DNA of 57,302 nucleotides from an uncultured Candidatus Saccharibacteria bacterium. Lineage in GTDB: Bacteria; Patescibacteriota; Minisyncoccia; Phycocordibacterales; Phycocordibacteraceae. The notes below the pieces were generated by a model. That model ran no database searches, was not told the DNA's origin, and saw nothing but the letters and a program-made list of their open reading frames with translations. The stretch lies in the NCBI GenBank assembly GCA_964652615.1, contig CAZZAT010000003.1:1-57302 (forward strand). Reading direction: 5' to 3'. The translations under genes and the position numbers were made by a program. This document shows, one piece after another, positions 1,799 through 52,996 of the stretch (position 1 is the first letter of the stretch; each line of letters opens with the position of its first letter).

Positions 1799-2483
1799 CC
1801 AAAACGAAGCATTGACGAAAGCACAGGAGGAGACGCTCGCCCTTATACAGCGTTATATAGATACCCATGGATATGCACCTACTCTGGGAGAACTTCAGGC
1901 GGTACTTAAGCTCCGGTCGCTCCGTTCCGTCACCCAAAGAATCGAAGCGCTTGAACGCAAAGGCTTCATCGCGCGAGATAGATTTCAGCGTCGTGGCCTC
2001 AAAGTCGTGGGAACGATGAAGAGCCAGTACGTCCCTTCAGGGTTTGTCGCTGTTCCTGTCATCGCTTCTGCCGGCTGCGACGCCATGGAGGTATATGCGC
2101 AGGATGAGTTCGGAGAGTTTATTGCGGTTGATAAGGCGCTTCTTGGCCGTGCGACCTCTATAGCCGCTATAAAGGCCGTAGGAGACTCTATGCAGGACGC
2201 AGGCATACAGGATGGGGATCATGTGATCGTGGAAGTCACTGACCGTGTAGAGACAGGGGATCGCGTTGTTGCCATCATTGGGAATATGGCGGTCATTAAG
2301 AGACTCGAGCAGCAGAAGGGCTTTACGCTTCTTCATCCTGAAAACAAAGAAGGCGACTACCGCCCCATAGTCGTAAAGCAGGAAGACTCAAAGATATTTG
2401 GCAAAGTACTCTCGGTTATTCCAAACCAAGAGTGGGTAGATGAAGTGAAGATTGAATACTACGACGGGTTTGGGCCAAGATAA
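1794..2483 (+). CDS. lexA: LexA SOS repressor
   Basis: N-terminal wHTH (GYAPTLGELQ...SVTQRIEALERKGFI), Ala-Gly cleavage site (ASAGC), S24 peptidase Ser (GDSM) and Lys (VIKR). Confidence 0.92.
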   Translation: MSQNEALTKAQEETLALIQRYIDTHGYAPTLGELQAVLKLRSLRSVTQRIEALERKGFIARDRFQRRGLKVVGTMKSQYVPSGFVAVPVIASAGCDAMEVYAQDEFGEFIAVDKALLGRATSIAAIKAVGDSMQDAGIQDGDHVIVEVTDRVETGDRVVAIIGNMAVIKRLEQQKGFTLLHPENKEGDYRPIVVKQEDSKIFGKVLSVIPNQEWVDEVKIEYYDGFGPR

Positions 2484-2496
2484 CCTCATAGAGTCT

Positions 2497-2736
2497 ATGA
2501 ACATAAAATACGACACCGTCGCAGACGCAATCTATGTGGCTATGACGCAGGCTAAAGTAGCAAAGACACTGAAGGTCAGTGAGAACCTCATGCTTGATGT
2601 TGATGCGGAAGGAAATACGGTTGGACTCGAGATATTGGAGGCTTCGTCTCAAGAAGAACTTGTAGAAAACATACGCCGCAATGCTGCACACGGCATCCCT
2701 GTGTCTATTGAGTCCAGTACTCCGGTAATAGCCTAG
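2497..2736 (+). CDS. DUF2283 domain protein
   Basis: KYDTVADAIYV...LDVDAEGNTVGLEILEAS matches the DUF2283 pattern. Confidence 0.8.
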   Translation: MNIKYDTVADAIYVAMTQAKVAKTLKVSENLMLDVDAEGNTVGLEILEASSQEELVENIRRNAAHGIPVSIESSTPVIA

Positions 2737-2761
2737 GTAGAAACCAGCAAAAGGATAAAAG

Positions 2762-2787
2762 CAAAAACCGCCCCTACGGGCGGCTTA
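2762..2787. terminator. hairpin terminator between convergent genes
   Basis: AAAAA-CCGCCC-ctac-GGGCGG. Confidence 0.55.
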
Positions 2788-2807
2788 TGCTGCAAGCCTT
2801 ACTTCGC

Positions 2808-3065
2808 TTACTTAAGGTGAGCAGAAACGAGCTTGGTCATTTCGAACATTGTGACCTCGCCCTTACCTCCAAAGACTGCCTTAAGCTTGTCATCCGCGAG
2901 GATGTTGCGCTTATTGGAAGGATTCTGGAGGTCGTGCTTCTTAATGTAGACCCAAATCTGCTTAACGACTTCTGAACGGGGCATCGGGCCCTTGCCGACG
3001 ACGGCTTCAAGCTCGGGAGAAAGTTGCATTGGCTTTGTAAGGGCCGGATTGAGTGCTCTAGGCAT
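2808..3065 (-). CDS. SWIB/MDM2 domain protein
   Basis: LSPELEAVVGKGPMPRSEVVKQIWVYIKKHDLQNPSNKRNILADDKLKAVFG is a typical stand-alone SWIB domain. Confidence 0.92.
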   Translation of the reverse strand: MPRALNPALTKPMQLSPELEAVVGKGPMPRSEVVKQIWVYIKKHDLQNPSNKRNILADDKLKAVFGGKGEVTMFEMTKLVSAHLK

Positions 3066-3182
3066 GAATTAAGGTTAGTTTACTGTCAAATGAAGTTGAC
3101 GAGAGGGATTATACCACAAAGGGGGTATTCTGTCCGCTGTCGAGAGGGGTGTGTTGATAGGGCTTTATGGTAGATTTTGGAG

Positions 3183-3623
3183 ATGAAAGCAAAGGCAAAA
3201 CCACTTTTTGTGGAGAGCATTACGGCATGGATAGGCTCCGTGCCCTCTCTCATCGCGCACACGCTAGTCTTTATCGGCGCCTTTGTAGCGGGGGCTTTGG
3301 GGCTTGAATCATGGGAACTCATTCTTCTTGTCCTTACGACCATCGTTTCCCTTGAGGCCATATACCTCGCTATCTTCATTCAGATGACGGTGAATAGAAA
3401 TACCGAGTCTCTTAAAGAGGTGGAAGAGGATATTGATGAGATTCAGGAGGATGTTGAAGAGCTCTCTGAAGATCTTGATGAAATTCAAGAAGACATTGAG
3501 GAAATCCAAGAGGATGAGGATGCTGATGATACGCGTAAGGCTGACCAGAAGAAAACACTCGAGCAGCTCACTGGAGACGTACGCCGTATTCTGGAAGACC
3601 TCGAAGCGCTGAAGAATAAGTAG
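3183..3623 (+). CDS. DUF1003-family membrane protein with acidic coiled-coil tail
   Basis: LLVLTTIVSLEAIYLAIFIQMTVNR motif, two TMs, heptad acidic repeat. Confidence 0.75.
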   Translation: MKAKAKPLFVESITAWIGSVPSLIAHTLVFIGAFVAGALGLESWELILLVLTTIVSLEAIYLAIFIQMTVNRNTESLKEVEEDIDEIQEDVEELSEDLDEIQEDIEEIQEDEDADDTRKADQKKTLEQLTGDVRRILEDLEALKNK

Positions 3624-3691
3624 TTTTGCCCCTTAGGTACCCGTCTGCTACGATAGGGGTAACACCCGAGCAGGGTTATTTTCATGTATAT

Positions 3692-4492
3692 ATGGCGGTC
3701 GAGCACGATGCAGTAGCTACAGGAACCGCGGCAGAGCATGCCGCGGAGGCTTCTCATGGAGGTATTCATGTGGTCTTGAAGGCCGAAGAGCTTTGGAATA
3801 TCGCAGGATTTCCCATCACCAATTCTCTCCTGATGACGTGGATTACGATGGCAGTCTTAATTGCCTTCGCTTTCTTTATGCGAAGCCGCCTTGCCCTTAT
3901 TCCTGGCAAGCTTCAGGCAGGAGTAGAGTGGCTTTTCCAAGGCGTCTTGAACTATATGTCCGAGACTCTTGAGAATGAGAAGCTTGCTCGCCGCTTCTTC
4001 CCGCTCATCATGACGATATTCTTGTTTGTCTTTGTTGCAAACGAGTTAGCCTTTCTCCCGGGCATTGGTTCCATTATGGTAGGTGATATTCCGCTTCTGC
4101 GCCCTGCGTCTGCAGACCTTAATATGACGCTTGCGCTCGCTATCATCTCCTTCCTTACCATTGAAATCACCGGAGTTGCCGTGCTTGGTTTTTTCAAATA
4201 CGCAGGGAAGTATGTTAACTTCAAATCACCGGTAGACTTTGTGGTGGGCATCATCGAGCTCATCTCGAACGTTGGGCGTCTCATTTCGTTCTCGTTCCGT
4301 CTCTTCGGTAATGTGTTTGCAGGAGAGGTGATGATTGTCGTGGCGATGTTCTTCGCCGCGTACCTCCTGCCGCTTCCCCTGATTGCCTTCGAAGTATTCG
4401 TGGGCTTCATTCAGGCGGTAGTGTTTGCGATGCTTACGTTGTTCTTCATCAAGCTCGCTATCATGGAGCCGCATGGGGAGGAAGCGCACTAG
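3692..4492 (+). CDS. atpB: F0 ATP synthase subunit a
   Basis: SFRLFGNVFAGE with conserved Arg; FIQAVVFAMLT; first gene of the atp operon. Confidence 0.96.
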   Translation: MAVEHDAVATGTAAEHAAEASHGGIHVVLKAEELWNIAGFPITNSLLMTWITMAVLIAFAFFMRSRLALIPGKLQAGVEWLFQGVLNYMSETLENEKLARRFFPLIMTIFLFVFVANELAFLPGIGSIMVGDIPLLRPASADLNMTLALAIISFLTIEITGVAVLGFFKYAGKYVNFKSPVDFVVGIIELISNVGRLISFSFRLFGNVFAGEVMIVVAMFFAAYLLPLPLIAFEVFVGFIQAVVFAMLTLFFIKLAIMEPHGEEAH

Positions 4493-4540
4493 CGCTGCCC
4501 CTCCATGCGGTTCCGGGATGGAATCATTATAAGCAGTTAA

Positions 4541-4780
<240 letters not shown>

Positions 4781-4787
4781 ACACACA

Positions 4788-5234
4788 ATGGACGCGCTTC
4801 TTCACGCATTTGGCATAGACTGGAAGCTCTTAATCGCGCAAGCGGTTAACTTCGGCATACTCTTTGTAGCGCTGTGGTTGCTTTTGTATAAGCCAGTGAT
4901 GAAGACTCTGGACGAGCGCCAGAAGCTTGTCGAAAAAGGCGTGCAAGATGCCAAAGAAGCCCAGGTGAAGCGTGAAAACGCTGACACTGAAGCTGCGAGC
5001 ATTATTGGCACTGCAGACAAAGAAGCGGAAGAGCTTGTACGCAATGCGCGCATGAGTGCTGCCGAAGAGAAGCAGCGTCTGGTAGCGGAAGCACAGATGC
5101 GTGCGGATCAGATAGCGAAAGATGCGCAGGCGAGAGCTACGGAAGAAGTAGCGAAAGCAAAGCGCGAAAGCGAAAAGGATATCGCTCGCCTTGCGCTTCT
5201 TGCTGCGGAGAAGGTGCTACGCGAAAAAGCATGA
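4788..5234 (+). CDS. atpF: F0 ATP synthase subunit b
   Basis: FGIDWKLLIAQAVNF TM anchor, YKPV..LDERQ, long coiled coil. Confidence 0.95.
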   Translation: MDALLHAFGIDWKLLIAQAVNFGILFVALWLLLYKPVMKTLDERQKLVEKGVQDAKEAQVKRENADTEAASIIGTADKEAEELVRNARMSAAEEKQRLVAEAQMRADQIAKDAQARATEEVAKAKRESEKDIARLALLAAEKVLREKA

Positions 5235-5602
5235 AAGACACCTACACACGACTTCTAGAGGTTGCTGCGGAATCAAAAGACCAGAAGGTTGCTGAAGAGG
5301 CGGTTATAAAGCTTGTGCATCACTTGCGAAGCGTTGGGAGACTCAAGATGCTTCCTTCGATAGCTTCCGAGCTTCGTCTTATCGAAGCGCGCCGCAAAGC
5401 GCTTCGCCCTACCGTTGAAGTTGCACGCAAGGAAGACGCAGAGTACGGACTCAAAGAAGCCAAAGCGCACGGCATAGAAACCAAGGAAGCGATAGTAAAC
5501 ACTTCCCTTATTTCCGGATGGCGAGGAAGCTACAAAGGCATGCTCGTGGATCGCACCGGTAAGCGTTCACTCATCGATATTTATAAGAATGTTACTTCGT
5601 AA
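5231..5602 (+). CDS. atpH: F1 subunit delta (short form)
   Basis: Operon position between b and alpha; C-terminal SLISGW...VDRTG motif resembles the delta/OSCP C-domain. Confidence 0.8.
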
Positions 5603-5604
5603 TC

Positions 5605-7152
5605 ATGGACAGCATCATTAAGCAGATAGAGAAGGAGATAGCCGCCTTTGCACCAACTCAAGGCGCAGAGGAGACGGGCGTTGTGCGCGCTGCCGGAGAC
5701 GGCATCGCAGAAATCGATGGCCTCGGTAATGCGCTCATGAGCGAAATGGTGCTTTTTGATGCAACCTTCGATCGCACTCTTGAAGAAGCTCTGAAAGACA
5801 GCGCCCCTATCTACGGCCTTCTCTTGAACCTTGAAGAGGATGGTGTGCGCGCTGCTATTTTGGGAGATGCGTCCAAAGTATATGAAGGCATGTTGGTTCG
5901 CCGTCTTGGGAAACTCCTTTCTCTTCCTGTGGGAGACTCGCTTATCGGCCGTGTCGTTAATCCGCTTGGTGAAGCGGTAGATGGCAAGGGCCCAACGGGG
6001 GCAACGAAGTTCGTTCCTATCGAGCGTGAAGCCTACGGCGTTATCGACCGTTCTCCCGTAAACGTGCCGCTTCACACGGGCATCAAAGCCATTGATGCCA
6101 TGATTCCAATTGGACGCGGCCAACGCGAGCTTATCATCGGCGACCGCGGTGTTGGTAAGACGACAATCGCTATCGATACCATTTTGAACCAGAAGTCAGA
6201 GCCGAAAGAAACTCGCCCTATCTGTATCTATGTCGCTATCGGCCAAAAGGAGAGTAAGACGGCAAAAATTGTTGCAGAACTGCAGGAGAAAGGAGCGATG
6301 GAGTACACGATTGTCGTTACAGCGCCTGCGTCTGCTCCTGCCGCCTATCAGTTCCTTGCACCGTTTGCCGGAGCAGCTATTGGCGAGCATTTCATGGAAG
6401 CTGGCAAAGATGCGCTCGTTATCTATGACGACCTCTCAAAGCAGGCGGTTGCCTATCGCCAGCTTTCTCTTCTTCTTCGTCGCCCGCCAGGACGCGAAGC
6501 ATATCCTGGCGATATCTTCTATCTCCACTCCCGTCTTCTTGAGCGAGCGGCAAAGCTTTCGAAAGAAAAGGGCGGCGGCTCTTTGACGGCACTTCCTATT
6601 ATTGAAACTCAAGAGGGTGACGTCTCTGCCTACATCCCGACCAACGTCATCTCGATTACGGACGGGCAGATCTTCCTCATCTCGGATCTCTTCAACAAAG
6701 GCATGCGCCCCGCAATTGATGTTGGTATCTCGGTGTCGCGCGTGGGAAGCTCGGCGCAGACAAAAGCGATGAAGAAGGTGTCGGGAAAGATTAAGCTTGA
6801 ACTCGCGCAGTTTCGAGAGCTTGAAGCCTTCATGCAGTTCTCCTCTGATCTTGATGAAGACACGAAGAAGCGTATCGATTCAGGACGCCGCATGACCGAA
6901 GTACTAAAGCAAGGCAACGGCAAGCCGCTCGCCTTTGAAATGGAAGCTGCAATTATCTTTGCAGCGGTAAACGGGTACTTCGATGCGCTTCCACCTGAAG
7001 ATGTTTCAAAAGCAGAACGCTCACTCCAAGACTATCTTTCTCGCGAGGCGGGAGACGCACTTGCTGCTATACGTGAGAAGAAAGAAATCGGAGAAGAAAC
7101 AGAAGCTCTGCTTCGCAAGGTGCTTGATGCGTTTGCTGCCCGTCAGAAGTAG
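5605..7152 (+). CDS. atpA: F1 subunit alpha
   Basis: [40 protein letters not shown]. Confidence 0.99.
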
Positions 7153-7157
7153 TACCT

Positions 7158-8066
7158 ATGGCTCTCAAGGATATTAAATCAAAGATTGCAGCGACGAAGC
7201 GGATGAATACCGTGACGCGCGCTATGGAAGCGGTGTCTGCCGTGAAGATGCGCAAGACGCAAGCCGCAGCATTTGCGGGGCGTCCGTATGCGCGTGCGGC
7301 GCTCTCCATTCTTGCACGCCTTTCAGGAACCGATGAAGTGCTTCGCCATCCGCTTGCAACAAAGCGCGATGCGAAACGCTTTGCACTCATCGTTATTACA
7401 AGCGATAAAGGGCTTGCCGGAGCGCTCAATTCAGGCGTCTTGAAGGCTGCTACTGAATATGTAGCCGCAAAAGAGATAGAGGCGGTAACGGTGTACGCGA
7501 TTGGCAAGAAGGGGCAGGAATATTTCTCTCGTCGCGGATATACGCTTGGTGCCTCCTATGACAACAAACGCGATGCTATCGAGCTTTCGGTTCTCGAAGC
7601 GCTTTCACACGAGGTGTCGGACGGTTTTGCTAAAGGCGCATACGATGAAGTGGTCGTTTGCTATAGCAACTTCAAGTCTACTTTTGAGCAGTTTCCAACA
7701 TTGCGCACCCTTCTTCCGCTTTCAGTAGAAGGCGTGCAGGAGCTTGTTGATGATATTCGCCCAGTAAAAGGAAAGGATGCAGCTTCTGTTGCAGTTTCCG
7801 CTCCCGCGTCCTATACCATCGAGTCGAGCGGAGATGACATTCTCGGTATTCTCGTTCCAAAACTGGTCGCTTCCTCCCTCTATCACATGCTTCTTGAAGC
7901 AAAAGCATCAGAACACTCTGCCCGCATGGTTGCCATGAAGAGCGCGTCTGATAAGTCAAAGGAGGTCGCACGCGATTTGACGCGCGTGTATAACAAGATT
8001 CGACAGGCAGCTATTACGCGGGAAGTTTCGGAAATTGTAGGAGGACGTGAAGCATTAGCGGCATGA
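7158..8066 (+). CDS. atpG: F1 subunit gamma
   Basis: ITSDKGLAGALN, SEHSARMVAM, RQAAITREVSEIV. Confidence 0.98.
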   Translation: MALKDIKSKIAATKRMNTVTRAMEAVSAVKMRKTQAAAFAGRPYARAALSILARLSGTDEVLRHPLATKRDAKRFALIVITSDKGLAGALNSGVLKAATEYVAAKEIEAVTVYAIGKKGQEYFSRRGYTLGASYDNKRDAIELSVLEALSHEVSDGFAKGAYDEVVVCYSNFKSTFEQFPTLRTLLPLSVEGVQELVDDIRPVKGKDAASVAVSAPASYTIESSGDDILGILVPKLVASSLYHMLLEAKASEHSARMVAMKSASDKSKEVARDLTRVYNKIRQAAITREVSEIVGGREALAA

Positions 8067-8067
8067 T

Positions 8068-9788
<1,721 letters not shown>

Positions 9789-44709: not shown

Positions 44710-45450
44710 TTGAGCGAAGTAACACCGCTTGAAAGCCGCACTCCTTCAGGGAAGGCGGTACATCCGTTTGTATGGGTTCTCCTCACGATACTTGGGGGAT
44801 TCATCCATTATGGATTGTGGGTCTTCGACAGAGTCTTCGAGTACGTCTGGTACCCACAAGTCATCATCGCGCACGGCGTCGTAAATGGCACCTTGCTCAT
44901 GATGGTGGCCTCGTGGCTTATCTGCCTATTCTTCCTCTGGGGCTACGACAACTGGCCCTGGCAATGGCTCCGCGATGCGCTTCGCTATGAATCGCTCAAG
45001 GGGTTTGGTAAGGAAGTGGAAGAGGAGCTCCTACATCCGGAGCCTCCGAAGTTCCTGCTCGGAACGAAAGAGTTCGCGGACAGAGGTCCGTGGATTTTGT
45101 TTAGCTGGCTTTGGGGGCTTATAAAAGCGGTCCTCGGAGTTCTCTTAATTCTGGCGCGGGTGCTTCTATACCTGTTCCGGAAACACATCTTACGACCGCT
45201 CTGGCTTGCCTTGCCGTGGCTTCGACCGACTCTACTCTTTCTCTACCTGTCTCTGGCCTTTGACCCGATGACTACTGCCATCATGATGCGACCGCAAGGA
45301 AAACACACGATGGGGAAGGGTGATTGGGCAATCTTCTATGGAAGCGTCTTTATTTCAAACGCTTCCTGGGGGCTGATGATATGGACTGGGGTTGAAACGT
45401 TAGAGGCGCTCGTTCCTGGCATCTGGGACAAGTTAAACGGACTCTTCTAA
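44710..45450 (+). CDS. hypothetical multi-pass membrane protein
   Basis: TTG start after GGGAGG, Trp/Leu-rich TMs, terminator GGGGCGCGGCA-gtata-TGCCGCGCCC. Confidence 0.75.
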   Translation: MSEVTPLESRTPSGKAVHPFVWVLLTILGGFIHYGLWVFDRVFEYVWYPQVIIAHGVVNGTLLMMVASWLICLFFLWGYDNWPWQWLRDALRYESLKGFGKEVEEELLHPEPPKFLLGTKEFADRGPWILFSWLWGLIKAVLGVLLILARVLLYLFRKHILRPLWLALPWLRPTLLFLYLSLAFDPMTTAIMMRPQGKHTMGKGDWAIFYGSVFISNASWGLMIWTGVETLEALVPGIWDKLNGLF

Positions 45451-45508: not shown

Positions 45509-46438
45509 ATGGCTTGGCTTGCTTTTGCCCTTGGCGCAACGTTTCTCTGGAGCGTTTCAAGTTTCGTGGATAAGCTTTTGATTGAGCGTTTTACACCAGA
45601 GCGCAGTGTCGCGCTCGCGCTTGGTATCTATTCGGGAGTATTTAGTCTGTGTCTTCTTCCGTTCCTGTTCTATTTCAATCAGCATGTGTTCTCGATAGAA
45701 GCTCTAAATGCGCTCCTATTTATTGCAACCGGCATACTTGAGATTACGGCAATTATTCTCTATTTGCGCGCTCTGCAGCATGAGGATACTTCAACGGTTG
45801 TGCCATTCTTCCAGACCATTCCCGTCTTCAGCTTTATACTGGGCTTTCTTATTCTTGGAGAGACGATAAGCGGGGCACAGGCGCTTTCTGGCCTTGGCAT
45901 TATCCTAGGCGGTATCTTGCTCTCGCTTGAGATATCAAAGGATAAAAAGGTAAGTTTCCGGCTTCCGCTCATCCTCCTTATGGTGGGCGCATCCGTCTGT
46001 TATGCACTCTTTGATGCGGTGTTTAAATACGCAGCTCTTCGAGAAGACTTCTGGTCAGGGGTCTTCTGGCAGCATGTGGGTATTGCGCTTTCCGGCTTCT
46101 TCATCCTTCTTGCCCGCAAGCGCTATCGGGAACGCTTCTTGAAGATACTGCGCGGGGAAGGAGCGCTTGTCTTTGGAGTAAATGTGGCAAATGAATCTTT
46201 GTACGCGGGAGGCATGATGCTCTCAAACTATGCGCTGCTTCTTGCTCCTATCGTGCTTGTTTCGCTCGTGAATGTGTACCAGCCGGTCTTCGTATTTATC
46301 ATCGGCATGCTCATTACCGTGCTTGCGCCGCGCATACTTAAAGAACAGACGTCGCGTGCACAGCTTTTGTTGAAGATACTCTCCATTATCATCATTTTGA
46401 TCTCAAGCATTTTCCTTGTACTTGCAACGGGGAGTTAA
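45509..46438 (+). CDS. EamA/DMT family transporter
   Basis: Two repeats of about five TMs; STVVPFFQTIPVF.FILGFLILGETI motif. Confidence 0.92.
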   Translation: MAWLAFALGATFLWSVSSFVDKLLIERFTPERSVALALGIYSGVFSLCLLPFLFYFNQHVFSIEALNALLFIATGILEITAIILYLRALQHEDTSTVVPFFQTIPVFSFILGFLILGETISGAQALSGLGIILGGILLSLEISKDKKVSFRLPLILLMVGASVCYALFDAVFKYAALREDFWSGVFWQHVGIALSGFFILLARKRYRERFLKILRGEGALVFGVNVANESLYAGGMMLSNYALLLAPIVLVSLVNVYQPVFVFIIGMLITVLAPRILKEQTSRAQLLLKILSIIIILISSIFLVLATGS

Positions 46439-46475: not shown

Positions 46476-47330
46476 ATGAGTTCCTCACGAAATTCCGTTC
46501 GCGTGGGCGTCTCAAAACTCCTCAACCTGGAGCATCTTTTTAAGCCCGCACGATTGAAAGTGCTTACACCGCTTCTTGGCGCCGCAGAAGAGCTTCGTCG
46601 GCGCCAAATGGATCCCCATTTGCGAAAGAAGGTTGAAGACTATTTGAAAGACGACATTCCTGACCACTTTCGCAAAGAACCCATTTTGTATTTAGCGCGG
46701 CACATTGCGACCCCGAATTTTGAGACGCTCCGGTTCCTCCATTTGACTGAACCACTTGATATGTCTGCCATCATCGGCCAAGACGTGAATGATAAGTTCG
46801 TTCCCTCTGACAATTTGCTAAAGCGTGCGCTCGGAAAGCTTTCCATTTCAAAAGGTATTTCACACAAAGATAAGAATTTTCATGAGCATTTTGCAAACGT
46901 TACCGTCATTGATTTCAATAGCTCAAGTGGCAAGCAGTTAAAAGACGTGCGCACGCTCTGGGGAGAGGATTTGGTTGGATTTCATAACAGGCTCTTTAGG
47001 ACTATCTGCAAGAACGACGTGCGTATTGTTGATGACTCAGCGTGGATAGATCGTCAGGAACGAGGGAAACTTCTTGAACACTACAAGCGTTTTCTCGCTC
47101 TCTTCATCGTCCACGGCATCTTATTCGAAGACATCGAGCTTGAACATGAAGGCGAAATACGCTTCATTCAGAAAATACTCATACCAGCGTTTCAGTTTGT
47201 TGAAAAGAAGTTTGGCGTACGGCCGCTCATCAGCCAGCTTATTCCTACGTCCGTAGAAAGCCCACGATTCTGGCTTAGCTATCCGCATGTGGTTCAGGAT
47301 GCTATCCAAAAGAAGCGGGTGGTATCATAG
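46476..47330 (+). CDS. soluble protein of unknown function, enzyme-like
   Basis: 284-aa ORF with alternating helix/strand pattern and motifs LARHIATPNFE, DKFV, FHNRLF, HGILFED; no family recognised. Confidence 0.85.
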   Translation: MSSSRNSVRVGVSKLLNLEHLFKPARLKVLTPLLGAAEELRRRQMDPHLRKKVEDYLKDDIPDHFRKEPILYLARHIATPNFETLRFLHLTEPLDMSAIIGQDVNDKFVPSDNLLKRALGKLSISKGISHKDKNFHEHFANVTVIDFNSSSGKQLKDVRTLWGEDLVGFHNRLFRTICKNDVRIVDDSAWIDRQERGKLLEHYKRFLALFIVHGILFEDIELEHEGEIRFIQKILIPAFQFVEKKFGVRPLISQLIPTSVESPRFWLSYPHVVQDAIQKKRVVS

Positions 47331-47334
47331 CCCT

Positions 47335-47724
47335 ATGCGAAATATCTCGGCCCTACTTTTCATTCTCGTACTCATCGGAGTACTTGTGTCTGTTGGTGTC
47401 TCATACCACAAAGTGTTTATTGCTGAAGCGTATGACGTAGAGTATGCGTCCGCGTGCGATCCTGAAACGCATCGCTGCTTTATGTACGCGGAAGAGTGTG
47501 ACGATACAGAGGAGTGCTCCGAACCCGAATACTATATGGTTATTCGCTCAAGCGCAGACATTTCGACCGCCTCTTGCGAAGCAGGGAACGATGCGTGCGA
47601 ACTTATATACTGCGATTCCGAACAAGGGGAAGCGTATGTAGAAATCCTTGGAGAATGCTCGGAAGAGTCTGTGCCTGAAGTTGAAATGACAGCGTCTGAA
47701 GAAATGACCGTCGATACGGAATAA
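47335..47724 (+). CDS. Cys-rich acidic membrane-anchored exported protein
   Basis: N-terminal TM/signal, eight Cys, very acidic; coupled to its neighbours. Confidence 0.8.
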   Translation: MRNISALLFILVLIGVLVSVGVSYHKVFIAEAYDVEYASACDPETHRCFMYAEECDDTEECSEPEYYMVIRSSADISTASCEAGNDACELIYCDSEQGEAYVEILGECSEESVPEVEMTASEEMTVDTE

Positions 47725-47727
47725 AAT

Positions 47728-48570
47728 ATGCCACACGAACCGCGCCCTCCAAAGACATACTGGTCAATAACAGAAGGAGTCTTTAACTGTCTTATTGATG
47801 AAGATAGGACTGAAGCGTTTGGAAATGCCATACGAAACGCCGTGCGCAAAGGTGATGTAGTAGTGGATATGGGGTCTGGCAGCGGCATTCTCGCACTTAT
47901 TGCCGCTAAAGCCGGTGCTTCGCGTGTATACGCGGTTGAATTTGACGAGGACAATGTAAAAACTCTAAAAGAGGTTGTGCGCCGCAATGGTCTCGAGGAG
48001 ATAGTACACATTATTCATGGAGACGTGACGACTGTTGATTTGCCCGAGCAAGTTGATGTGATTGTTGGTGAAATGATTGCAACTGGTCTTATTGAAGAGC
48101 TTCAGGTACAGGCTTCAAATAACATATTGCGATTTGCAAAACCTGATACAAGAGTTGTCTTAGAAAAGTTTGAAAGCAGCATCGACCTTGTCTGGAATAA
48201 TGCATCGTTCTACGACATGCACTTTGACGTTGTGCGCTATGAATATGCAGGTGAAGAATCGCTCGCCTCTACTCCGCATTCAAATTCTTTCCCGTACTCG
48301 CTTGTTGATTTCAGCAAACAAGTAACCGACAGAAACGTAGCAGTACAGGTACAGATACCTATTACAAAAAAGGGAACTATCAACGGCCTTCGTATTAGTA
48401 GTCGTACTATTTTCTCTGACACCTCAACATTCGGGTTTTCTTTTGCTTATAGCTACCCAATCATTCTTCCTATTCCTCAAAGGGAAGTAGCGGTTGGTGA
48501 AGAGCTTTCCGTAGAGCTTTCCTATGAGTTGTGTGGCGGATTTAACACGCTGCGTTATTCTGTAGCATAA
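47728..48570 (+). CDS. PRMT-like class I SAM-dependent methyltransferase
   Basis: LIDEDRTEAF, VVDMGSGSGIL, AGASRVYAVE, LPEQVDVIVGEMIATGLIEE (double-E loop), C-terminal beta-rich domain. Confidence 0.85.
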   Translation: MPHEPRPPKTYWSITEGVFNCLIDEDRTEAFGNAIRNAVRKGDVVVDMGSGSGILALIAAKAGASRVYAVEFDEDNVKTLKEVVRRNGLEEIVHIIHGDVTTVDLPEQVDVIVGEMIATGLIEELQVQASNNILRFAKPDTRVVLEKFESSIDLVWNNASFYDMHFDVVRYEYAGEESLASTPHSNSFPYSLVDFSKQVTDRNVAVQVQIPITKKGTINGLRISSRTIFSDTSTFGFSFAYSYPIILPIPQREVAVGEELSVELSYELCGGFNTLRYSVA

Positions 48571-48572
48571 CT

Positions 48573-50195
48573 ATGAACGAACTGTACTGCGACGGCACTC
48601 CTTATATACTCGGTCTCTTTGATCCAAGTTATGTGCCACAGCTCTTGTGGTACGCCTATGTTCCAATAACCGTTATCGCCCTTGTGTTTGGCGTATTTCT
48701 TCTTGCAAAAGACCGCTTCTCACTCCGCTCATGGCTCTTCTTCGGTATTGCGCTCTTATTCTCTCTGAATCTTGTGAACGAGACTCTGCAATGGGTCACG
48801 GTACCTGTAGCGGGGAATCTTTTTGCTTGGCACCTTACGGCGCTTCTTCAGACACTAATCTATGTAGCCACTTTCTACTTCGCTTATGTCTTTACGCGCA
48901 GAGCGCTTCCGAATACATGGATTAATCTTGGCGCCGCTCTTCTTGTCGCACCGGTACTCATATTGCTCCCAACCCACTACAACATCATTGGCTTCGATGT
49001 CTTAAACTGCGAAGGTTTAAACGGATATGGCTGGCTCTATTTCTATGGCCTTCAGGCACTAATAACAACAGGTGTCATCCTTCTTGCATTCAAGAAGGAA
49101 TCCTCGACTGAATCACTTGTGCAAAAACAACAGCGTATATCTATCGTCTTGAGCGCATTTATCTTCCTTGCGGTAATGTTGGCCGTTCACGTATTTGGCG
49201 ACCTACTTGGAGAGTATGTTATTTATCTGGCTGTTTCTCTTAGTATGGCCGCATTTATTGGTCTTGTAACGCACTCCATTGTTGCGTACCGCACCTTTAA
49301 CATTGGACTTATTGCTGCACAGGCACTCATCTTCGCTCTTATTGCTCTAATAGGATCTCAATTCTTTTTCGTTGAATCGAATGTCAATAGAATTCTAATC
49401 TCCGTTACTCTGGTGCTTACTGCCGGCATCGGTCTAGTGCTTATACGAAGTGTTAAAAAGGAAATCGAACAGCGTGTTCACATTGAAAAACTTGCTAAAG
49501 AACTTGAAGCTGCAAACGGCCGACAGGTAAGCCTTATTCACTTCATTACGCACCAAATTAAAGGCTTTGTTACCAAATCAAGAAATATCTTTGCGGGAAT
49601 GAAGGAAGGGGACTTTGGAGCACTCCCCGACACTGCAAAGCCAATGGTAGACGAAGGATTCTCCTCTGATACCAAGGGCCTCACTATGATTCAAGACATC
49701 TTGAATGCAGCAAACATCAAGAGCGGAAACGTGGAGTTCAAGATGGAGCCGTTTGATTTGAAAGCGCTTATTGAAGAAATTGTTGCTTCGTTAAAACCTG
49801 CTGCAGAGCAAAAAGGACTCGAGTTCACGGCGGAAGTAAGTGATATGACCATTACGGGCGATCGCGTACAGCTTGCAAACGTCTTCAAGAATGTGATTGA
49901 TAACGCCATTAAATACACGCCAAGCGGAAAGGTCTCTATTACGCTCCAGAAGAAGGATGGTAAGGCGGTATTTGTCGAGGAAGATACGGGCGTAGGTATT
50001 ACCAAAGAAGATATGGAGAAACTGTTTACGGAAGGCGGGCACGGCGTTGAATCGAAGAAGGTCAATGTAGAGTCGACCGGCTTTGGCCTCTATATCGCAA
50101 AGTCTATTGTCGAGAAACATAACGGCCATATCAAAGCTGAATCAGAGGGTGAAGGAAAAGGTTCGCGCTTTACTATCGAACTCCCCGAGAAGTAG
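48573..50195 (+). CDS. sensor histidine kinase with N-terminal 7TM-type domain
   Basis: About seven to eight TMs; H-box THQIK; NVIDNAIKYT, DTGVGI, TGFGLY, SEGEGKGSRF. Confidence 0.93.
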   Translation: MNELYCDGTPYILGLFDPSYVPQLLWYAYVPITVIALVFGVFLLAKDRFSLRSWLFFGIALLFSLNLVNETLQWVTVPVAGNLFAWHLTALLQTLIYVATFYFAYVFTRRALPNTWINLGAALLVAPVLILLPTHYNIIGFDVLNCEGLNGYGWLYFYGLQALITTGVILLAFKKESSTESLVQKQQRISIVLSAFIFLAVMLAVHVFGDLLGEYVIYLAVSLSMAAFIGLVTHSIVAYRTFNIGLIAAQALIFALIALIGSQFFFVESNVNRILISVTLVLTAGIGLVLIRSVKKEIEQRVHIEKLAKELEAANGRQVSLIHFITHQIKGFVTKSRNIFAGMKEGDFGALPDTAKPMVDEGFSSDTKGLTMIQDILNAANIKSGNVEFKMEPFDLKALIEEIVASLKPAAEQKGLEFTAEVSDMTITGDRVQLANVFKNVIDNAIKYTPSGKVSITLQKKDGKAVFVEEDTGVGITKEDMEKLFTEGGHGVESKKVNVESTGFGLYIAKSIVEKHNGHIKAESEGEGKGSRFTIELPEK

Positions 50196-50222: not shown

Positions 50223-51788
50223 ATGAATAAAGGACAGAGACTCGATATTTCAAAACTAAGCAGGGAGGGTACTGCTTGGGCGGATGCTGCCGCAGATGTC
50301 ATCATTGCAGCACATCCGGACGCACCCCTCTATACGACTGCGGCTGGCATCAGTCCTTCAGGCGTCGTTCATTTTGGCAACTTTCGAGATATCGTCACGT
50401 CGCATCTGGTGCGAGAAGCACTAAAACGCAAAGGGAAGAATGCGCGCTTGATATTCTCTTGGGATAACTTCGACCGATACCGCAAAGTGCCTTCTGGTGT
50501 TCCTGAATCTTTTGCAGAACATATCGGAAAGCCCCTTTCAAAAATTCCTGACCCTTTTGGTGAGCTGTCTTCGTATGCCGAGCGCTTTCAAGCACCTTTT
50601 GTTGAAGCAATGGAGCGCCTTGGTATTGAAATAGAGTATAGAAACCAGACCGAACTGCATGAAAGCGGCGTGTATGACGAGGCATTGTTTGAAGCGATGC
50701 GTTCGCGAGGCGCCATTGCCGACATACTGCTCTCGTTTATGACCGACAAGGCAAAGGGAGAGAAGGGTATTGATCCGGTAAGCTACCGCGAACACTACTA
50801 TCCAATTGCTGTGTATTCACGCTTTACCGGAAAGGATGCAACGAAGATACTTTCGTATGACGGGGCATCAACCATTACGTATCTTTGTGCTGAAACAGGC
50901 AAAGAAGATACGGTAGACCTCTCACATGAGCATATTGCAAAGCTTGCCTGGAAGGCGGACTGGCCGATGCGCTGGCGCCATGAAGGCGTGCATTTTGAGC
51001 CGGGAGGACACGACCACGCTTCGCCAGGAGGCAGCTATGACGTCGCTTCCGTTATTGCAAAAGACATATTCGGCTTCGAAGCTCCTGTCTTCGTGGAATA
51101 TAAATTCGTTGGGATTCAGGGACTTGGAGCGAAGATGTCGGGCTCAAAAGGAAACGCCGTATCGCCCCTTGAACTCCTTGAAATATACGAGCCTGATGTA
51201 TTGAAATGGCTGTACTTTAGAAAGTCGCCCGACCAGTCATTCGAACTCGCCTTTAACACAGATATCTACCGTCAGTACGAAGAGTATGATGCGGAACACT
51301 CTGGCAGAAGTGCAATTCCATTTCGCCAAGCGGTCAGCTTTGGGCAAATCGTGCAGTGGGATACAGGGAAATTGAAACACATACTGGAGAGTCTCGGTCA
51401 CTCGTACGATGAAGAAAGTATTGCTACGCGCCTTCCACTCGCACAAAACTGGCTCGTAAAGTACAACCCCGAAGAAGTAATCGCTGTTCTTGATGCTCCC
51501 AACACCACATACAGAGCATCAATGAATGAGAAGCAAAAAGAGCAGATAACACGTCTTGTAGAAGAACTTGAGAGCAAGGCCGATGCTGGCATAAAAGAAC
51601 TGGAAGAACTTGTATATGCCATTCCCAAATCGCCAGAACTCTCTGAAGCTGACCTCAAGAAAGCGCAGCGCGCATTCTTCAAAGACGTCTATAACCTCCT
51701 TATCGGAAGAGATACGGGGCCGCGTCTTGGTACCTTTCTGTGGGTTATCGACCGAGAGAAAGCACTCAACCTTCTGCGCAGTTCATAG
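50223..51788 (+). CDS. lysS: lysine--tRNA ligase, class I
   Basis: AGISPSGVVHFGN, KLAWKADWPMRW, EPGGHDH, KMSGSKGN, GPRLGTF. Confidence 0.96.
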   Translation: MNKGQRLDISKLSREGTAWADAAADVIIAAHPDAPLYTTAAGISPSGVVHFGNFRDIVTSHLVREALKRKGKNARLIFSWDNFDRYRKVPSGVPESFAEHIGKPLSKIPDPFGELSSYAERFQAPFVEAMERLGIEIEYRNQTELHESGVYDEALFEAMRSRGAIADILLSFMTDKAKGEKGIDPVSYREHYYPIAVYSRFTGKDATKILSYDGASTITYLCAETGKEDTVDLSHEHIAKLAWKADWPMRWRHEGVHFEPGGHDHASPGGSYDVASVIAKDIFGFEAPVFVEYKFVGIQGLGAKMSGSKGNAVSPLELLEIYEPDVLKWLYFRKSPDQSFELAFNTDIYRQYEEYDAEHSGRSAIPFRQAVSFGQIVQWDTGKLKHILESLGHSYDEESIATRLPLAQNWLVKYNPEEVIAVLDAPNTTYRASMNEKQKEQITRLVEELESKADAGIKELEELVYAIPKSPELSEADLKKAQRAFFKDVYNLLIGRDTGPRLGTFLWVIDREKALNLLRSS

Positions 51789-51802
51789 GCTATACTCTCT
51801 AC

Positions 51803-52996
51803 ATGAATCTTGTTGAAGAGCTACAAGCACGCGGCCTCGTTGAACACGCTTCTGCGCCACTTGAGACCGTTCTCAAGGAAAAACGCTTCGTATACCTTGG
51901 CGTTGATCCAACCGCAGATTCGATGCAGGTTGGAAATCTTGCGCTGGTGCTTTTGTTAAAGCGCCTTTCAGATGCGGGCCATCGTGTGATGCTGCTGGTA
52001 GGCGGAGGCACGGGGATGATAGGGGATCCAAAAGAAAAGGGTGAGCGAGCGCTTGTAGACACCAAAACGGTTGAACGCAATGCGCGTGCCGTTAAGCGCC
52101 AAATGGAGCGCATTATCGGAACGAAAGTACCCGTCGTAAACAATGCGTCATGGCTTTCGAAAGTGCAGCTTCTTCCATTTCTTCGCGACATCGGCAAGCA
52201 CTTTACGGTAAACGAGCTCATAAAGCGGGACATCATACGCCGCAGGCTTGAAACTCCTGATGAAAGTATTTCGTACACCGAGTTCGCGTATGCCTTGCTT
52301 CAGGGCTACGACTTCCTCCATCTCTTTAAGACTAAGGGAGTGAATGCGCAGATAGGCGGGTCGGACCAGTGGACCAACATCCTTTCGGGTGTCGAACTCA
52401 TTCGCCGCAAAGAAGCTAAGGAAGCATACGCGCTGACCTGTCCTTTGGTAACTGATGCTTCTGGAAAGAAGTTTGGGAAGTCCGAAGGAAATGCGGTCTG
52501 GCTCGATGCGTCAAAGACGTCGCCCTATGAGTTTTACCAGTTTTGGATAAACCAACCTGACGCTTCAGCGGGAGAGTACTTGAAGAAATACACCTTCCTC
52601 TCCCTTCAAAAGATTGATGCGCTTCTTGCCGAACATGCAAAAAATCCAAGCGAACGACTTGCACAGAAAACACTTGCTGCTGAAGTAACAGAACTTGTGC
52701 ATGGCCGCCATGAAGCAACTGCAGCGGTAAACGCGAGCAATGCACTCTTCGGGAAGGGAGGAGACGTGTCAAAACTTCCTTCACATACCATTTCTCCTGA
52801 TGCCACGATTTTGTCTGCAGGTGCCCAAAGCTTGGGACTCTCTAAGTCTGAAATGCGCCGCCTTATCGATGCAAAAGGCATAAGGTTGAATGGGCAGACC
52901 ATAGAGACGGATAGGGCCTTTACCGACGCAGACTTTACTGACGGCACTGCCATCTTACAAAAGGGGAAGACCGAGAAGATAGTCATACGACGATAG
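51803..52996 (+). CDS. tyrS: tyrosine--tRNA ligase
   Basis: YLGVDPTADS, LQGYDF, QIGGSDQWTNI, KKFGKSEGNAVWL, C-terminal S4-like domain. Confidence 0.98.
   Translation: MNLVEELQARGLVEHASAPLETVLKEKRFVYLGVDPTADSMQVGNLALVLLLKRLSDAGHRVMLLVGGGTGMIGDPKEKGERALVDTKTVERNARAVKRQMERIIGTKVPVVNNASWLSKVQLLPFLRDIGKHFTVNELIKRDIIRRRLETPDESISYTEFAYALLQGYDFLHLFKTKGVNAQIGGSDQWTNILSGVELIRRKEAKEAYALTCPLVTDASGKKFGKSEGNAVWLDASKTSPYEFYQFWINQPDASAGEYLKKYTFLSLQKIDALLAEHAKNPSERLAQKTLAAEVTELVHGRHEATAAVNASNALFGKGGDVSKLPSHTISPDATILSAGAQSLGLSKSEMRRLIDAKGIRLNGQTIETDRAFTDADFTDGTAILQKGKTEKIVIRR

Follow-up and report, generated by a model that had tools for sequence, protein, structure and literature searches.

The gene T and its cassette in the window

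The DNA analysed here, called the window throughout, is a stretch of 57,302 nt from an uncultured Candidatus Saccharibacteria bacterium (Patescibacteriota; assembly GCA_964652615.1, contig CAZZAT010000003.1, positions 1 to 57,302), and the gene under study, named T, occupies positions 46476 to 47330 of its forward strand. In an earlier note, made from the letters alone, the product of this gene had been described as an enzyme-like soluble protein of no recognisable family, heading a kinase operon and loosely recalling tRNA-dependent cyclodipeptide synthases (CDPS). T is the constant, enzyme-like member of a probable membrane-signalling cassette that moves horizontally and in the window consists of the following genes:

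44710..45450, + strand: m8, a polytopic protein of 246 amino acids (aa) with about four transmembrane helices, a recurrent partner of T (from the open reading frame (ORF), transmembrane-like segments and alignment)
45509..46438, + strand: EamA/DMT-family transporter of 309 aa, a candidate exporter (Pfam EamA, E = 1.5e−17)
46476..47330, + strand: T, a soluble protein of 284 aa, from ATG to TAG (from the ORF call, homologues, alignments and fold models)
47335..47724, + strand: c4, a single-pass membrane protein of 129 aa, with its transmembrane helix at residues 1–30 and an isoelectric point (pI) of 4.1
47728..48570, + strand: class I methyltransferase of 280 aa, similar to protein arginine methyltransferases (PRMTs) (from PDB sequence matches and Pfam)
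48573..50195, + strand: sensor histidine kinase of the HisKA_7TM type, 540 aa with about seven transmembrane helices (HATPase_c, E = 1.9e−25)

The ORF of T was recovered with exactly the coordinates and length previously given, and its product has no transmembrane-like segment (grand average of hydropathy of −0.30). Five motif blocks had been quoted for it, namely ILYLARHIATPNFETLRF (residues 70–87), GQDVNDKFV (101–109), GEDLVGFHNRLF (163–174), HYKRFLALFIVHGILFED (202–219) and FWLSYP (265–270), and all of them were present and coincided with the best-conserved columns of the family alignments. T is not a chance ORF, since its closest relatives were matched at E = 5e−112 (66% identity) and an exhaustive HMMER search over 1.84 billion representatives returned 687 clusters (50% identity) at E ≤ 1e−3, with 494 at ≤1e−10 and 127 at ≤1e−30; a word-indexed search matched 217 clusters at 90% identity. 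Whatever name a member had was ‘hypothetical protein’, and this also holds for the RefSeq record from a cultured Caulobacter. Furthermore, the claim that no family could be recognised was borne out, as scans of T against Pfam-A (E ≤ 1), NCBIfam, PADLOC and PHROGs gave zero matches, 68 diverse members compared with Pfam (E ≤ 0.1) and 29 compared with NCBIfam gave scattered single noise matches only, and phmmer and a 68-sequence T profile run against the PDB sequences found nothing better than E ~0.7. No description of the T family or the cassette was found in searches of the literature on HisKA_7TM, on SET and kinase genes of Patescibacteria (the candidate phyla radiation, CPR), or on quorum sensing and small membrane proteins of CPR. 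T is a real, conserved and soluble protein whose family was previously undescribed.

The three genes downstream of T follow it with gaps of only 4, 3 and 2 nt (stop at 47330 and ATG at 47335; 47724 and 47728; 48570 and 48573), and no credible internal terminator was found in the T-to-kinase run of the window. This tight coupling agrees with the operon that the earlier note had proposed, but T is internal rather than first in it, because the co-oriented EamA and m8 genes upstream recur in the same cassette elsewhere. In the window, the EamA gene ends 37 nt upstream of T and is itself preceded by m8.

Neither m8 nor c4 had a match in Pfam, yet both are conserved beyond CPR. The m8 alignment (A4) spans members from Caulobacter and other Proteobacteria and contains the motifs YD..RDWLGIE and DP..TT..MR...M..RDW..F..S...N..W, with G56, G60, Y79, D89, E94, R194, F209, N217 and W220 being invariant; the copy in the window has an additional insertion of ~60 aa. 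The m8 gene adjoins T in both CPR and Proteobacteria, and overlaps it in two alpha-proteobacterial loci (L097 and L098). The product of c4 combines an N-terminal transmembrane helix, a Cys-rich CDPE..CF domain and an acidic tail, with eight Cys in the window and ~10 in most of its homologues, and its family reaches from CPR to Caulobacter. An alternative ATG of c4 at 47287 overlaps T; from comparison with the homologues, 47335 is most likely the start. The kinase presents transmembrane-like segments across residues 21–295 and its orthologues match HisKA_7TM and HisKA, while no response regulator is encoded next to it in the window. Regarding defence and phage protein families, PADLOC assigned none to T, c4, m8 or the EamA protein and gave only generic methyltransferase and HATPase matches for the neighbours, and PHROGs had no match for m8 and c4 either.

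Recurrence, variable partners and mobility

The gene neighbourhood was compared in 93 loci, drawn from species-representative genomes, from metagenomes and by contig look-up, whose ORFs were called and clustered. Once these had been dereplicated at 95% T identity, 36 loci remained with flanks of ≥4 kb downstream of T and ≥1.5 kb upstream. Among these, a polytopic histidine kinase of ~550 aa lay at most 5 kb from T in 24 loci, and slightly farther away in two others (L054 and L058). EamA adjoined T in 17 of the 36, followed in frequency by a membrane-anchored protein of ~130 aa with ~10 Cys (13 loci), a protein of ~190 aa with four transmembrane helices (12 loci), a Peptidase_M28 gene directly after T (7 loci) and a standalone SET or GNAT gene (6 loci). 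The four-helix protein was either m8 or a positional analogue, m14, whose motifs are collinear with those of m8 (hhalign probability of 3%). The kinases carry HisKA and HATPase_c, several orthologues having in addition the Pfam HisKA_7TM N-terminal domain.

In a number of loci T seemed to abut the kinase directly. However, all 12 of them contained, in the gap of 130–250 nt, an ORF of 43–67 aa with a single transmembrane helix, a CYYVT[IV]Y.G.V.VL-like stretch and a short, often poly-acidic tail. Gene callers overlook most of these short forms, which lack the Cys-rich domain, and the long Cys-rich proteins share an identical N-terminal design with them. Because every one of these 12 loci held such an ORF, the small protein belongs to the conserved core, which is made up of T, a small single-pass membrane protein and a HisKA_7TM kinase. 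The T–m8–Cys-rich–kinase cassette also recurs in Caulobacter ginsengisoli. Moreover, all the kinases linked to T were closer to that of the window (234 bits for Caulobacter) than the HisKA_7TM kinases of T-less genomes of the same family or order (193, 161 and 133 bits). Because the T-linked kinases score above the T-less ones, the comparison indicates that kinase and T travel together, the T-linked kinases being a subgroup.

Other arrangements were also found. In a distant CPR branch (Uhrbacteria, Magasanikbacteria and Kerfeldbacteria) an M28 peptidase invariably comes after T, and this pair is followed by a GATase1/Peptidase_C26 gene in L033 and one near-identical locus. A minimal alpha-proteobacterial module comprises a gene with an XRE-type helix-turn-helix (HTH), T and m8, while in L046 a receiver follows the kinase. 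Two T-less relatives were informative as well. At the syntenic site downstream of dnaJ in a genome of the same family (G139; L099, G139:C1:69000-79000, 2234–5717), PlsC and a Rossmann protein of 376 aa (Shikimate_DH/ThiF-like, its gene overlapping the next one) precede a HisKA_7TM kinase, which is followed by a 43-aa transmembrane ORF. In the second (G205; L100, G205:C1:126500-135500, ~1900–8700), ThiF-family and nitroreductase-family genes come first, a pair like that of ribosomally synthesised and post-translationally modified peptides (RiPPs), and precede two tandem units of HisKA_7TM kinase and single-domain receiver. Since both genomes carry other enzymes ahead of the kinase, this class of kinase is habitually found behind a changeable set of enzymes for biosynthesis or modification, T being one of those that can fill the slot.

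A second variable position was observed within the cassette, where one enzyme lies between T and the kinase, or is fused to T, its type differing by locus. In the window it is the class I methyltransferase, for which the PDB matches listed were all PRMTs (PRMT6 at 3.3e−21, PRMT7, CARM1 and PRMT1) and Pfam gave PrmA, PRMT5 and generic methyltransferase families. In other loci it is a SET domain closest to histone-lysine methyltransferases (1e−8), a GNAT, a Formyl_trans_N protein of 347 aa closest to Met-tRNA formyltransferase (5e−16) or a PlsC acyltransferase. Furthermore, natural fusions exist in both orders, GNAT–T (P0159, P0207 and P0209) and T–SET (P0185, P0203, P0235 and P0246). The partners of T act on amino-acid-type nitrogens, that is, the Lys epsilon-amine, the Arg guanidine, the alpha-amine and adjoining amide bonds. 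No correlation was seen between the type of partner enzyme and the Lys or Arg residues in the N-terminus of the small protein. As a separate observation, only the Rossmann half of the PRMT-like protein in the window (residues 21–140) aligns to PRMTs, and its C-terminal 140 aa do not.

T is single-copy in its genome (637 kb, 96.5% complete) and was present in 4 of 301 evenly sampled Patescibacteria genomes, those sampled from the same family and the same order lacking it; a role as a core CPR housekeeping gene was consequently rejected. Outside CPR, it occurs in the cultured Caulobacter ginsengisoli DSM 18695 and a Caulobacter sp., as well as in metagenome-assembled genomes of Burkholderiaceae, delta-proteobacteria, Desulfuromonas and gamma-proteobacteria. 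In the alpha-proteobacterial contig L098, T lies among TraG/TrwB-like, ArdC, RadC, SRAP and Ros/MucR genes as cargo of a conjugative element, and in Caulobacter ginsengisoli the cassette adjoins an ArdC-like antirestriction gene. The plasmid and phage collections searched held no record with T. T is an accessory, horizontally moving gene, because its distribution is rare, patchy and cross-phylum and it is found beside mobile-element genes. Two details of these neighbourhoods can be added: the ArdC of L098 (1–14759) has a polyvalent metallopeptidase domain and a divergent XRE-type HTH gene lies near T–m8, and an ArdC-like gene and a large protein of 894 aa are encoded near T–m8 in L028 (1–7000).

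Variation was also observed in T itself. Some loci have two divergent paralogues (L051, L067, L073, L085 and L086); in the delta-proteobacterial L085 and L086 these flank a GNAT gene and precede an unassigned protein of 301 aa and m8, while L087, like L026, presents a single T flanked by SET/GNAT-type genes. N-terminal extensions of ~120 aa (L036, L060 and L067; 379–387 aa in total) and ~230 aa (L046; 493 aa) were found too, and none of the extended proteins scanned against Pfam (including L060, P0198, P0219 and P0251) had a match.

Predicted fold and conserved residues of T

The AlphaFold2 model of T, built from a 35-sequence alignment, had a mean predicted local distance difference test score (pLDDT) of 89.6 and a predicted template modelling score (pTM) of 0.85, with disorder at residues 1–11 only. 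A second, independent AlphaFold model was obtained for the most divergent T branch, which has 22–26% identity to that of the window, and showed the identical topology (pLDDT 86.2, pTM 0.84). In both, five strands are predicted in a Rossmann-like three-layer sandwich (b1-a-b2-hairpin insert-b3-a-b4-a-b5), with these elements in the AlphaFold2 model of T:

N-terminal part: helices
Residues 70–75: strand b1, then a helix
Residues 97–102: strand b2, then the insert, a long beta-hairpin (121–143) and a helix
Residues 182–186: strand b3, then a helix
Residues 214–218: strand b4, then a long helix
Residues 252–254: strand b5

Both models were compared with the PDB by Foldseek (50 matches listed per model), and one of them with BFVD. 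The best PDB E-values were 0.015 and 0.063, none being below 0.001, and the query-normalised TM-score did not exceed 0.35; BFVD likewise gave no significant neighbour for the one model. The only recurring neighbours of both models, all of them non-significant, were HUP-class enzymes, comprising phosphopantetheine adenylyltransferase (PPAT), PanC, cytidylyltransferases, NMNAT, NAD synthetase, ATP sulfurylase, QueC and tyrosyl-tRNA synthetase (TyrRS). The best HUP superposition on T was that of PPAT 5ts2 (E = 0.03, TM-score of 0.33 by query and 0.50 by target, rmsd 6.5), and the second model reached at best E = 0.063 with a TM-score ≤0.35. HUP-class enzymes (PPAT/CoaD, PanC, cytidylyltransferases, class I aminoacyl-tRNA synthetases (aaRS) and CDPS) share with the predicted T fold a five-stranded parallel-sheet alpha/beta core. 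However, the matches remain non-significant (E ≥ 0.015; TM-score ≤0.35 by query and ≤0.50 when normalised to short targets), T has the large hairpin insert after its second strand, and the T alignments (A1, A2 and A3) contain no HIGH, KMSKS, ISST or PP-loop and no glycine-rich loop past strand 1 (ARHIATPNFE). As modelled, the fold of T is Rossmann-like and loosely HUP-like, without demonstrable homologue, and from the recurrent matches a distant kinship with the HUP class is possible. The Rossmann part of the earlier fold assignment was in this way supported, whereas its HUP part found recurring neighbours but no significant one.

Six residues are invariant across the superfamily (K116, H170, Y203, E218, F230 and P250, in the numbering of the window copy), six others are nearly so (R43, D106, D186, H213, G214 and W266), and R75 and E83 are conserved in most branches. 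Rossmann-like enzymes bind their substrates at the C-terminal ends of the strands, and most of the conserved residues of T are predicted to lie at or just past the C-terminal ends of the parallel strands, R43 in an N-terminal helix being an exception. This placement of the invariant polar residues in the model is consistent with the enzyme-like character that had been suggested for the protein, and K116, H170, Y203 and E218, together with R43, R75, E83, D106, D186 and H213, are candidate catalytic residues. The combination of invariant Lys, His, Tyr and Glu near the strand ends with the lack of a glycine-rich or HIGH nucleotide loop argues, on the models, for acid-base or hydrolytic/transfer chemistry over classical nucleotide activation. 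The His-containing loop near the N-terminus, which had been singled out before, did not hold as a signature, since several branches have Q, N or another residue in place of H76, the His that follows strand 1.

Several specific folds were considered and not supported: CDPS, aaRS, GNAT, LmbE, sirtuin, CheB-like and receiver folds all lacked a Foldseek match at E < 0.001. LmbE-type deacetylases did appear in the tail (2ixd and 6iiy, E of 0.34–0.43, TM-score ~0.3), but an LmbE/PIG-L identity was rejected on there being no Pfam match and no AHPDD motif, H76 being unconserved and without a following DD. A GNAT/Fem identity, one of the checks that had been proposed, was rejected for the lack of a Pfam match and for the predicted parallel-sheet Rossmann-like topology; the GNAT signatures were confined to the N-terminal domain of the fusions.

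Readings of the cassette and related systems

The reading to which most weight is given, still tentatively, is that T is a new enzyme producing or processing a signal with an amine group, and that this signal is subsequently tailored, exported and sensed by the kinase. In this scheme, T would make or unmask a small molecule of amino-acid or polyamine origin that bears an amine or guanidine group, the variable enzyme would methylate, acetylate, formylate or acylate that product, EamA would export the tailored molecule, and the small membrane protein and the seven-transmembrane kinase would perceive it. The whole would be an autoinducer-like synthase–receptor cassette whose tailoring enzyme sets the ‘dialect’. 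A stronger version, in which T is a new enzyme class with a fold absent from the PDB and makes a new amine- or guanidine-type signal, with plug-in PRMT, SET, GNAT or formyl ‘writers’, export, and readout by the kinase and a small acidic or Cys-rich co-receptor, is possible but already doubtful. Several observations weigh against the amine-signal proposal. Because T has no significant homologue, its chemistry is derived solely from its neighbours; the usual substrates of PRMT- and SET-type enzymes are proteins, so that a peptide or protein is favoured over a small molecule; and EamA is missing from about half of the T loci. In addition, the kinase is absent from the XRE-HTH/T/m8 module and the T–M28 branch, so that T has a kinase-independent function, and the presumed outer position of the tail of the small protein follows only from the positive-inside rule. 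As for polyamines, a fused S-adenosylmethionine decarboxylase (AdoMetDC)/spermidine synthase gene was found near a GNAT–T gene, with one ORF of 152 aa between them, and in the L010 genome T is directly preceded, on its own strand, by an AdoMetDC gene. Both adjacencies are real; nevertheless, decarboxylated S-adenosylmethionine or polyamine as a general substrate of T was rejected because only 5 of the 28 genomes with T have AdoMetDC and the genome of the window lacks it.

The main rival to the signal-synthase reading makes T a peptide-maturation enzyme of an agr- or RiPP-like pheromone system, in which T, maybe docked on m8, would modify or process the downstream small protein, the PRMT-, SET-, GNAT- or Fmt-like partner would decorate its Arg, Lys or N-terminus, and the seven-transmembrane kinase would sense the product. 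The gene order (membrane protein, enzyme, small peptide, kinase and, in L046, receiver) mirrors agrB–agrD–agrC–agrA, a small ORF was present in every kinase-linked locus examined, and the partners are nearest to protein-modifying enzymes (PRMT6 at 3e−21, histone lysine methyltransferase SET domains at 1e−8 and Met-tRNA formyltransferase at 5e−16). Moreover, a relative's HisKA_7TM kinase stands behind the ThiF and nitroreductase genes typical of RiPP machinery, and M28 and C26 peptidases pair with the distant T branch. Set against this, the Cys-rich or acidic bulk of the small protein is predicted to lie outside while T is cytoplasmic, its short cytoplasmic N-terminus is uncorrelated with the partner type, and the T–M28 and XRE–T–m8 modules have no obvious peptide gene; nor were there Pfam AgrB or AgrD matches for m8, T or c4, or a detectable domain like the RiPP recognition element. 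This explanation appears somewhat unlikely, if still to be taken seriously. A modification of the envelope is a weaker candidate, unlikely on balance, by which T and m8 would add, remove or unmask an amine-bearing group carried by a membrane lipid or by a lipid-linked sugar, as the Arn, MprF or Dlt pathways do, with EamA as a flippase and the kinase and its small acidic partner sensing cationic stress and controlling the pathway. It would account for T–m8 being the most widely retained pair, with overlapping genes in L097 and L098, for PlsC beside GNAT–T and at the position of T in G139, for the two GT2 genes inserted in the L054 cassette and for an ArnA-like/Fmt-like formyltransferase together with EamA, which recalls ArnA and ArnE/F; weak Foldseek matches to LmbE-type de-N-acetylases (TM-score 0.32) point the same way. 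Yet no precedent is known for SET or PRMT-like partners in the modification of lipids or sugars, T lacks the AHPDD metal motif of LmbE and does not conserve the His that follows strand 1, and the cassette has no transferase of the ArnT, MprF or DltB type.

It is rather improbable that T is a non-catalytic partner of the kinase, binding a cytoplasmic metabolite or nucleotide like the USP/HUP domains in KdpD and modulating the kinase, or being targeted itself, by either the kinase or the N-modifying enzyme. The strong linkage and co-transfer of T and kinase, the lack of an adjacent response regulator in most loci, the loosely HUP-like fold and the fusions to ‘writer’ SET and GNAT domains, for which T could be the substrate or the targeting domain, would all fit, but invariant Lys, His, Tyr and Glu mainly near the strand C-termini are typical of catalysis, and T is found without the kinase (T–M28 and XRE–T–m8) and as two paralogues in some loci. 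Considerably less credit is given to a conflict or defence module carried by mobile elements, with T as sensor or signal-generating enzyme and m8 as membrane effector. The rare and patchy distribution (4 of 301 genomes), the conjugative-element neighbourhood of L098 with its divergent XRE-type HTH gene, and a layout of enzyme plus small transmembrane protein resembling CBASS and Pycsar speak for it; the empty PADLOC and PHROGs results for T, m8 and c4, links to a sensor kinase, an exporter and tailoring enzymes that are atypical of defence systems, and the lack of a phage or plasmid record with T speak against it. The least probable of all is the one closest to the earlier note, a CDPS-like enzyme derived from class I aaRS and making a signal from aminoacyl-tRNAs. 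TyrRS, PanC, PPAT and other HUP enzymes occur in the non-significant Foldseek tail of both models, some loci have a partner similar to Met-tRNA formyltransferase, and a candidate lysyl-tRNA synthetase (LysRS) gene and a TyrRS gene follow the cassette in the window, the latter being explained by dnaJ–tyrS synteny. However, none of the 68 members matched Pfam CDPS (PF16715), no CDPS was among the 50 Foldseek matches listed for either model, and the TM-score to every HUP match was ≤0.35, the TyrRS matches having E ≥ 0.058 and query TM-scores of 0.21–0.32; the hhalign probability between the T profile and a TyrRS/TrpRS profile was 0.6%, and HIGH and KMSKS are absent. CDPS such as AlbC have a catalytic Ser after an N-terminal strand and Tyr and Glu residues in the pocket. 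The superfamily alignment of T has no invariant Ser, R75 after strand 1 being followed by a variable H, Q or N, and the Y..E motif is absent too; mapping of conservation thus gave the invariant K116, H170, Y203 and E218, but neither H76 nor a CDPS-type nucleophile. A tRNA- or nucleic-acid-binding role suggested by the pI of 9.5 of the window copy was rejected as the family median is 6.6; this basic pI, the sole indirect indicator of aminoacyl-tRNA use, is not a family trait, and nothing was found linking T to aminoacyl-tRNA. Of the earlier proposal, a signal synthase stays reasonable given the gene context, while the assignments to CDPS and aaRS were not supported.

On the features compared, T does not belong to CDPS, class I aaRS or HUP nucleotidyltransferases, GNAT/Fem, LmbE, Agr or the known defence systems. 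By analogy, its cassette functionally resembles most closely the synthase–receptor–kinase pairs such as CqsA/CqsS and the agrBDCA-type loci; these comparisons, with LqsA/LqsS, comCDE and plnABCD among them, draw on general knowledge. In CqsA–CqsS (Vibrio) and LqsA–LqsS (Legionella), as in the T cassette, the gene of a cytoplasmic enzyme lies beside that of a multi-transmembrane histidine kinase that lacks a large periplasmic domain, both genes move as one unit and the response regulator is often encoded elsewhere. In contrast, CqsA is an acyl-CoA transferase dependent on pyridoxal phosphate (PLP), while T shows neither a PLP-enzyme signature nor a related fold, and the T cassette includes in addition a small membrane protein, an exporter and an exchangeable N-modifying enzyme. 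With agrBDCA (and comCDE/plnABCD) it shares a processing enzyme or membrane protein, a small peptide with a hydrophobic N-terminus and an acidic C-terminal tail, and a kinase of 6–7 transmembrane helices (with a receiver in L046). It differs in that T is soluble and Rossmann-like as opposed to a membrane cysteine peptidase, that AgrB and AgrD families are absent by Pfam, that its small protein has a true transmembrane helix and often a domain of ~100 aa with 10 Cys, and that its kinase is HisKA_7TM/HisKA/HATPase_c and not HPK10, with no LytTR regulator. The neighbour of T, rather than T, has counterparts in small membrane modulators of sensor kinases, namely MgrB–PhoQ, SafA–PhoQ and ScrA–SaeS (reviewed in PMC12648545 and PMC12239555): it is a single-pass protein of 43–165 aa encoded beside a polytopic kinase, on which it probably acts. 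Unlike in the T cassette, no dedicated cytoplasmic enzyme, exporter or N-modifying enzyme is known to accompany those modulators.

What is new here is the T family, the cassette being of a known kind, an enzyme with a membrane-kinase signalling unit, unusual for its plug-in writers and its presence in CPR and Caulobacter. To our knowledge, almost nothing is known about how the small-genome Patescibacteria sense hosts or peers, and the T cassette is a concrete, testable candidate for a module of signal production and perception in them. Furthermore, it ties eukaryote-style ‘writer’ enzymes (PRMT-like, SET and GNAT) to an orphan family, sometimes by fusion, and its occurrence in Caulobacter, a cultured, non-pathogenic and genetically tractable genus, makes its function testable without CPR culture. 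A new chemistry of T would mean a new enzyme family and possibly a new signal class, and the latter would be the first chemical communication system between cells, or between symbiont and host, defined in Patescibacteria and shared horizontally with Caulobacter and other Proteobacteria; a role as kinase accessory would mean a new type of two-component-system partner.

Finally, some observations concern genes inserted in or lying next to the cassette. In L054 (7788–10699), EamA and the Cys-rich protein are separated by a deoxynucleoside-kinase-like gene and the two GT2 glycosyltransferase genes. Many Paceibacteria have the T cassette as an insertion separating dnaJ from tyrS, and a functional link of T to tyrS or lysS was rejected on this synteny, dnaJ and tyrS being neighbours in T-less relatives. 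Downstream of the kinase in the window, a candidate class I-type LysRS, by motifs read by eye, spans 50223–51788 and is followed by tyrS at 51740–52996, both ORFs apparently overlapping by 49 nt if the GTG at 51740 is the start.

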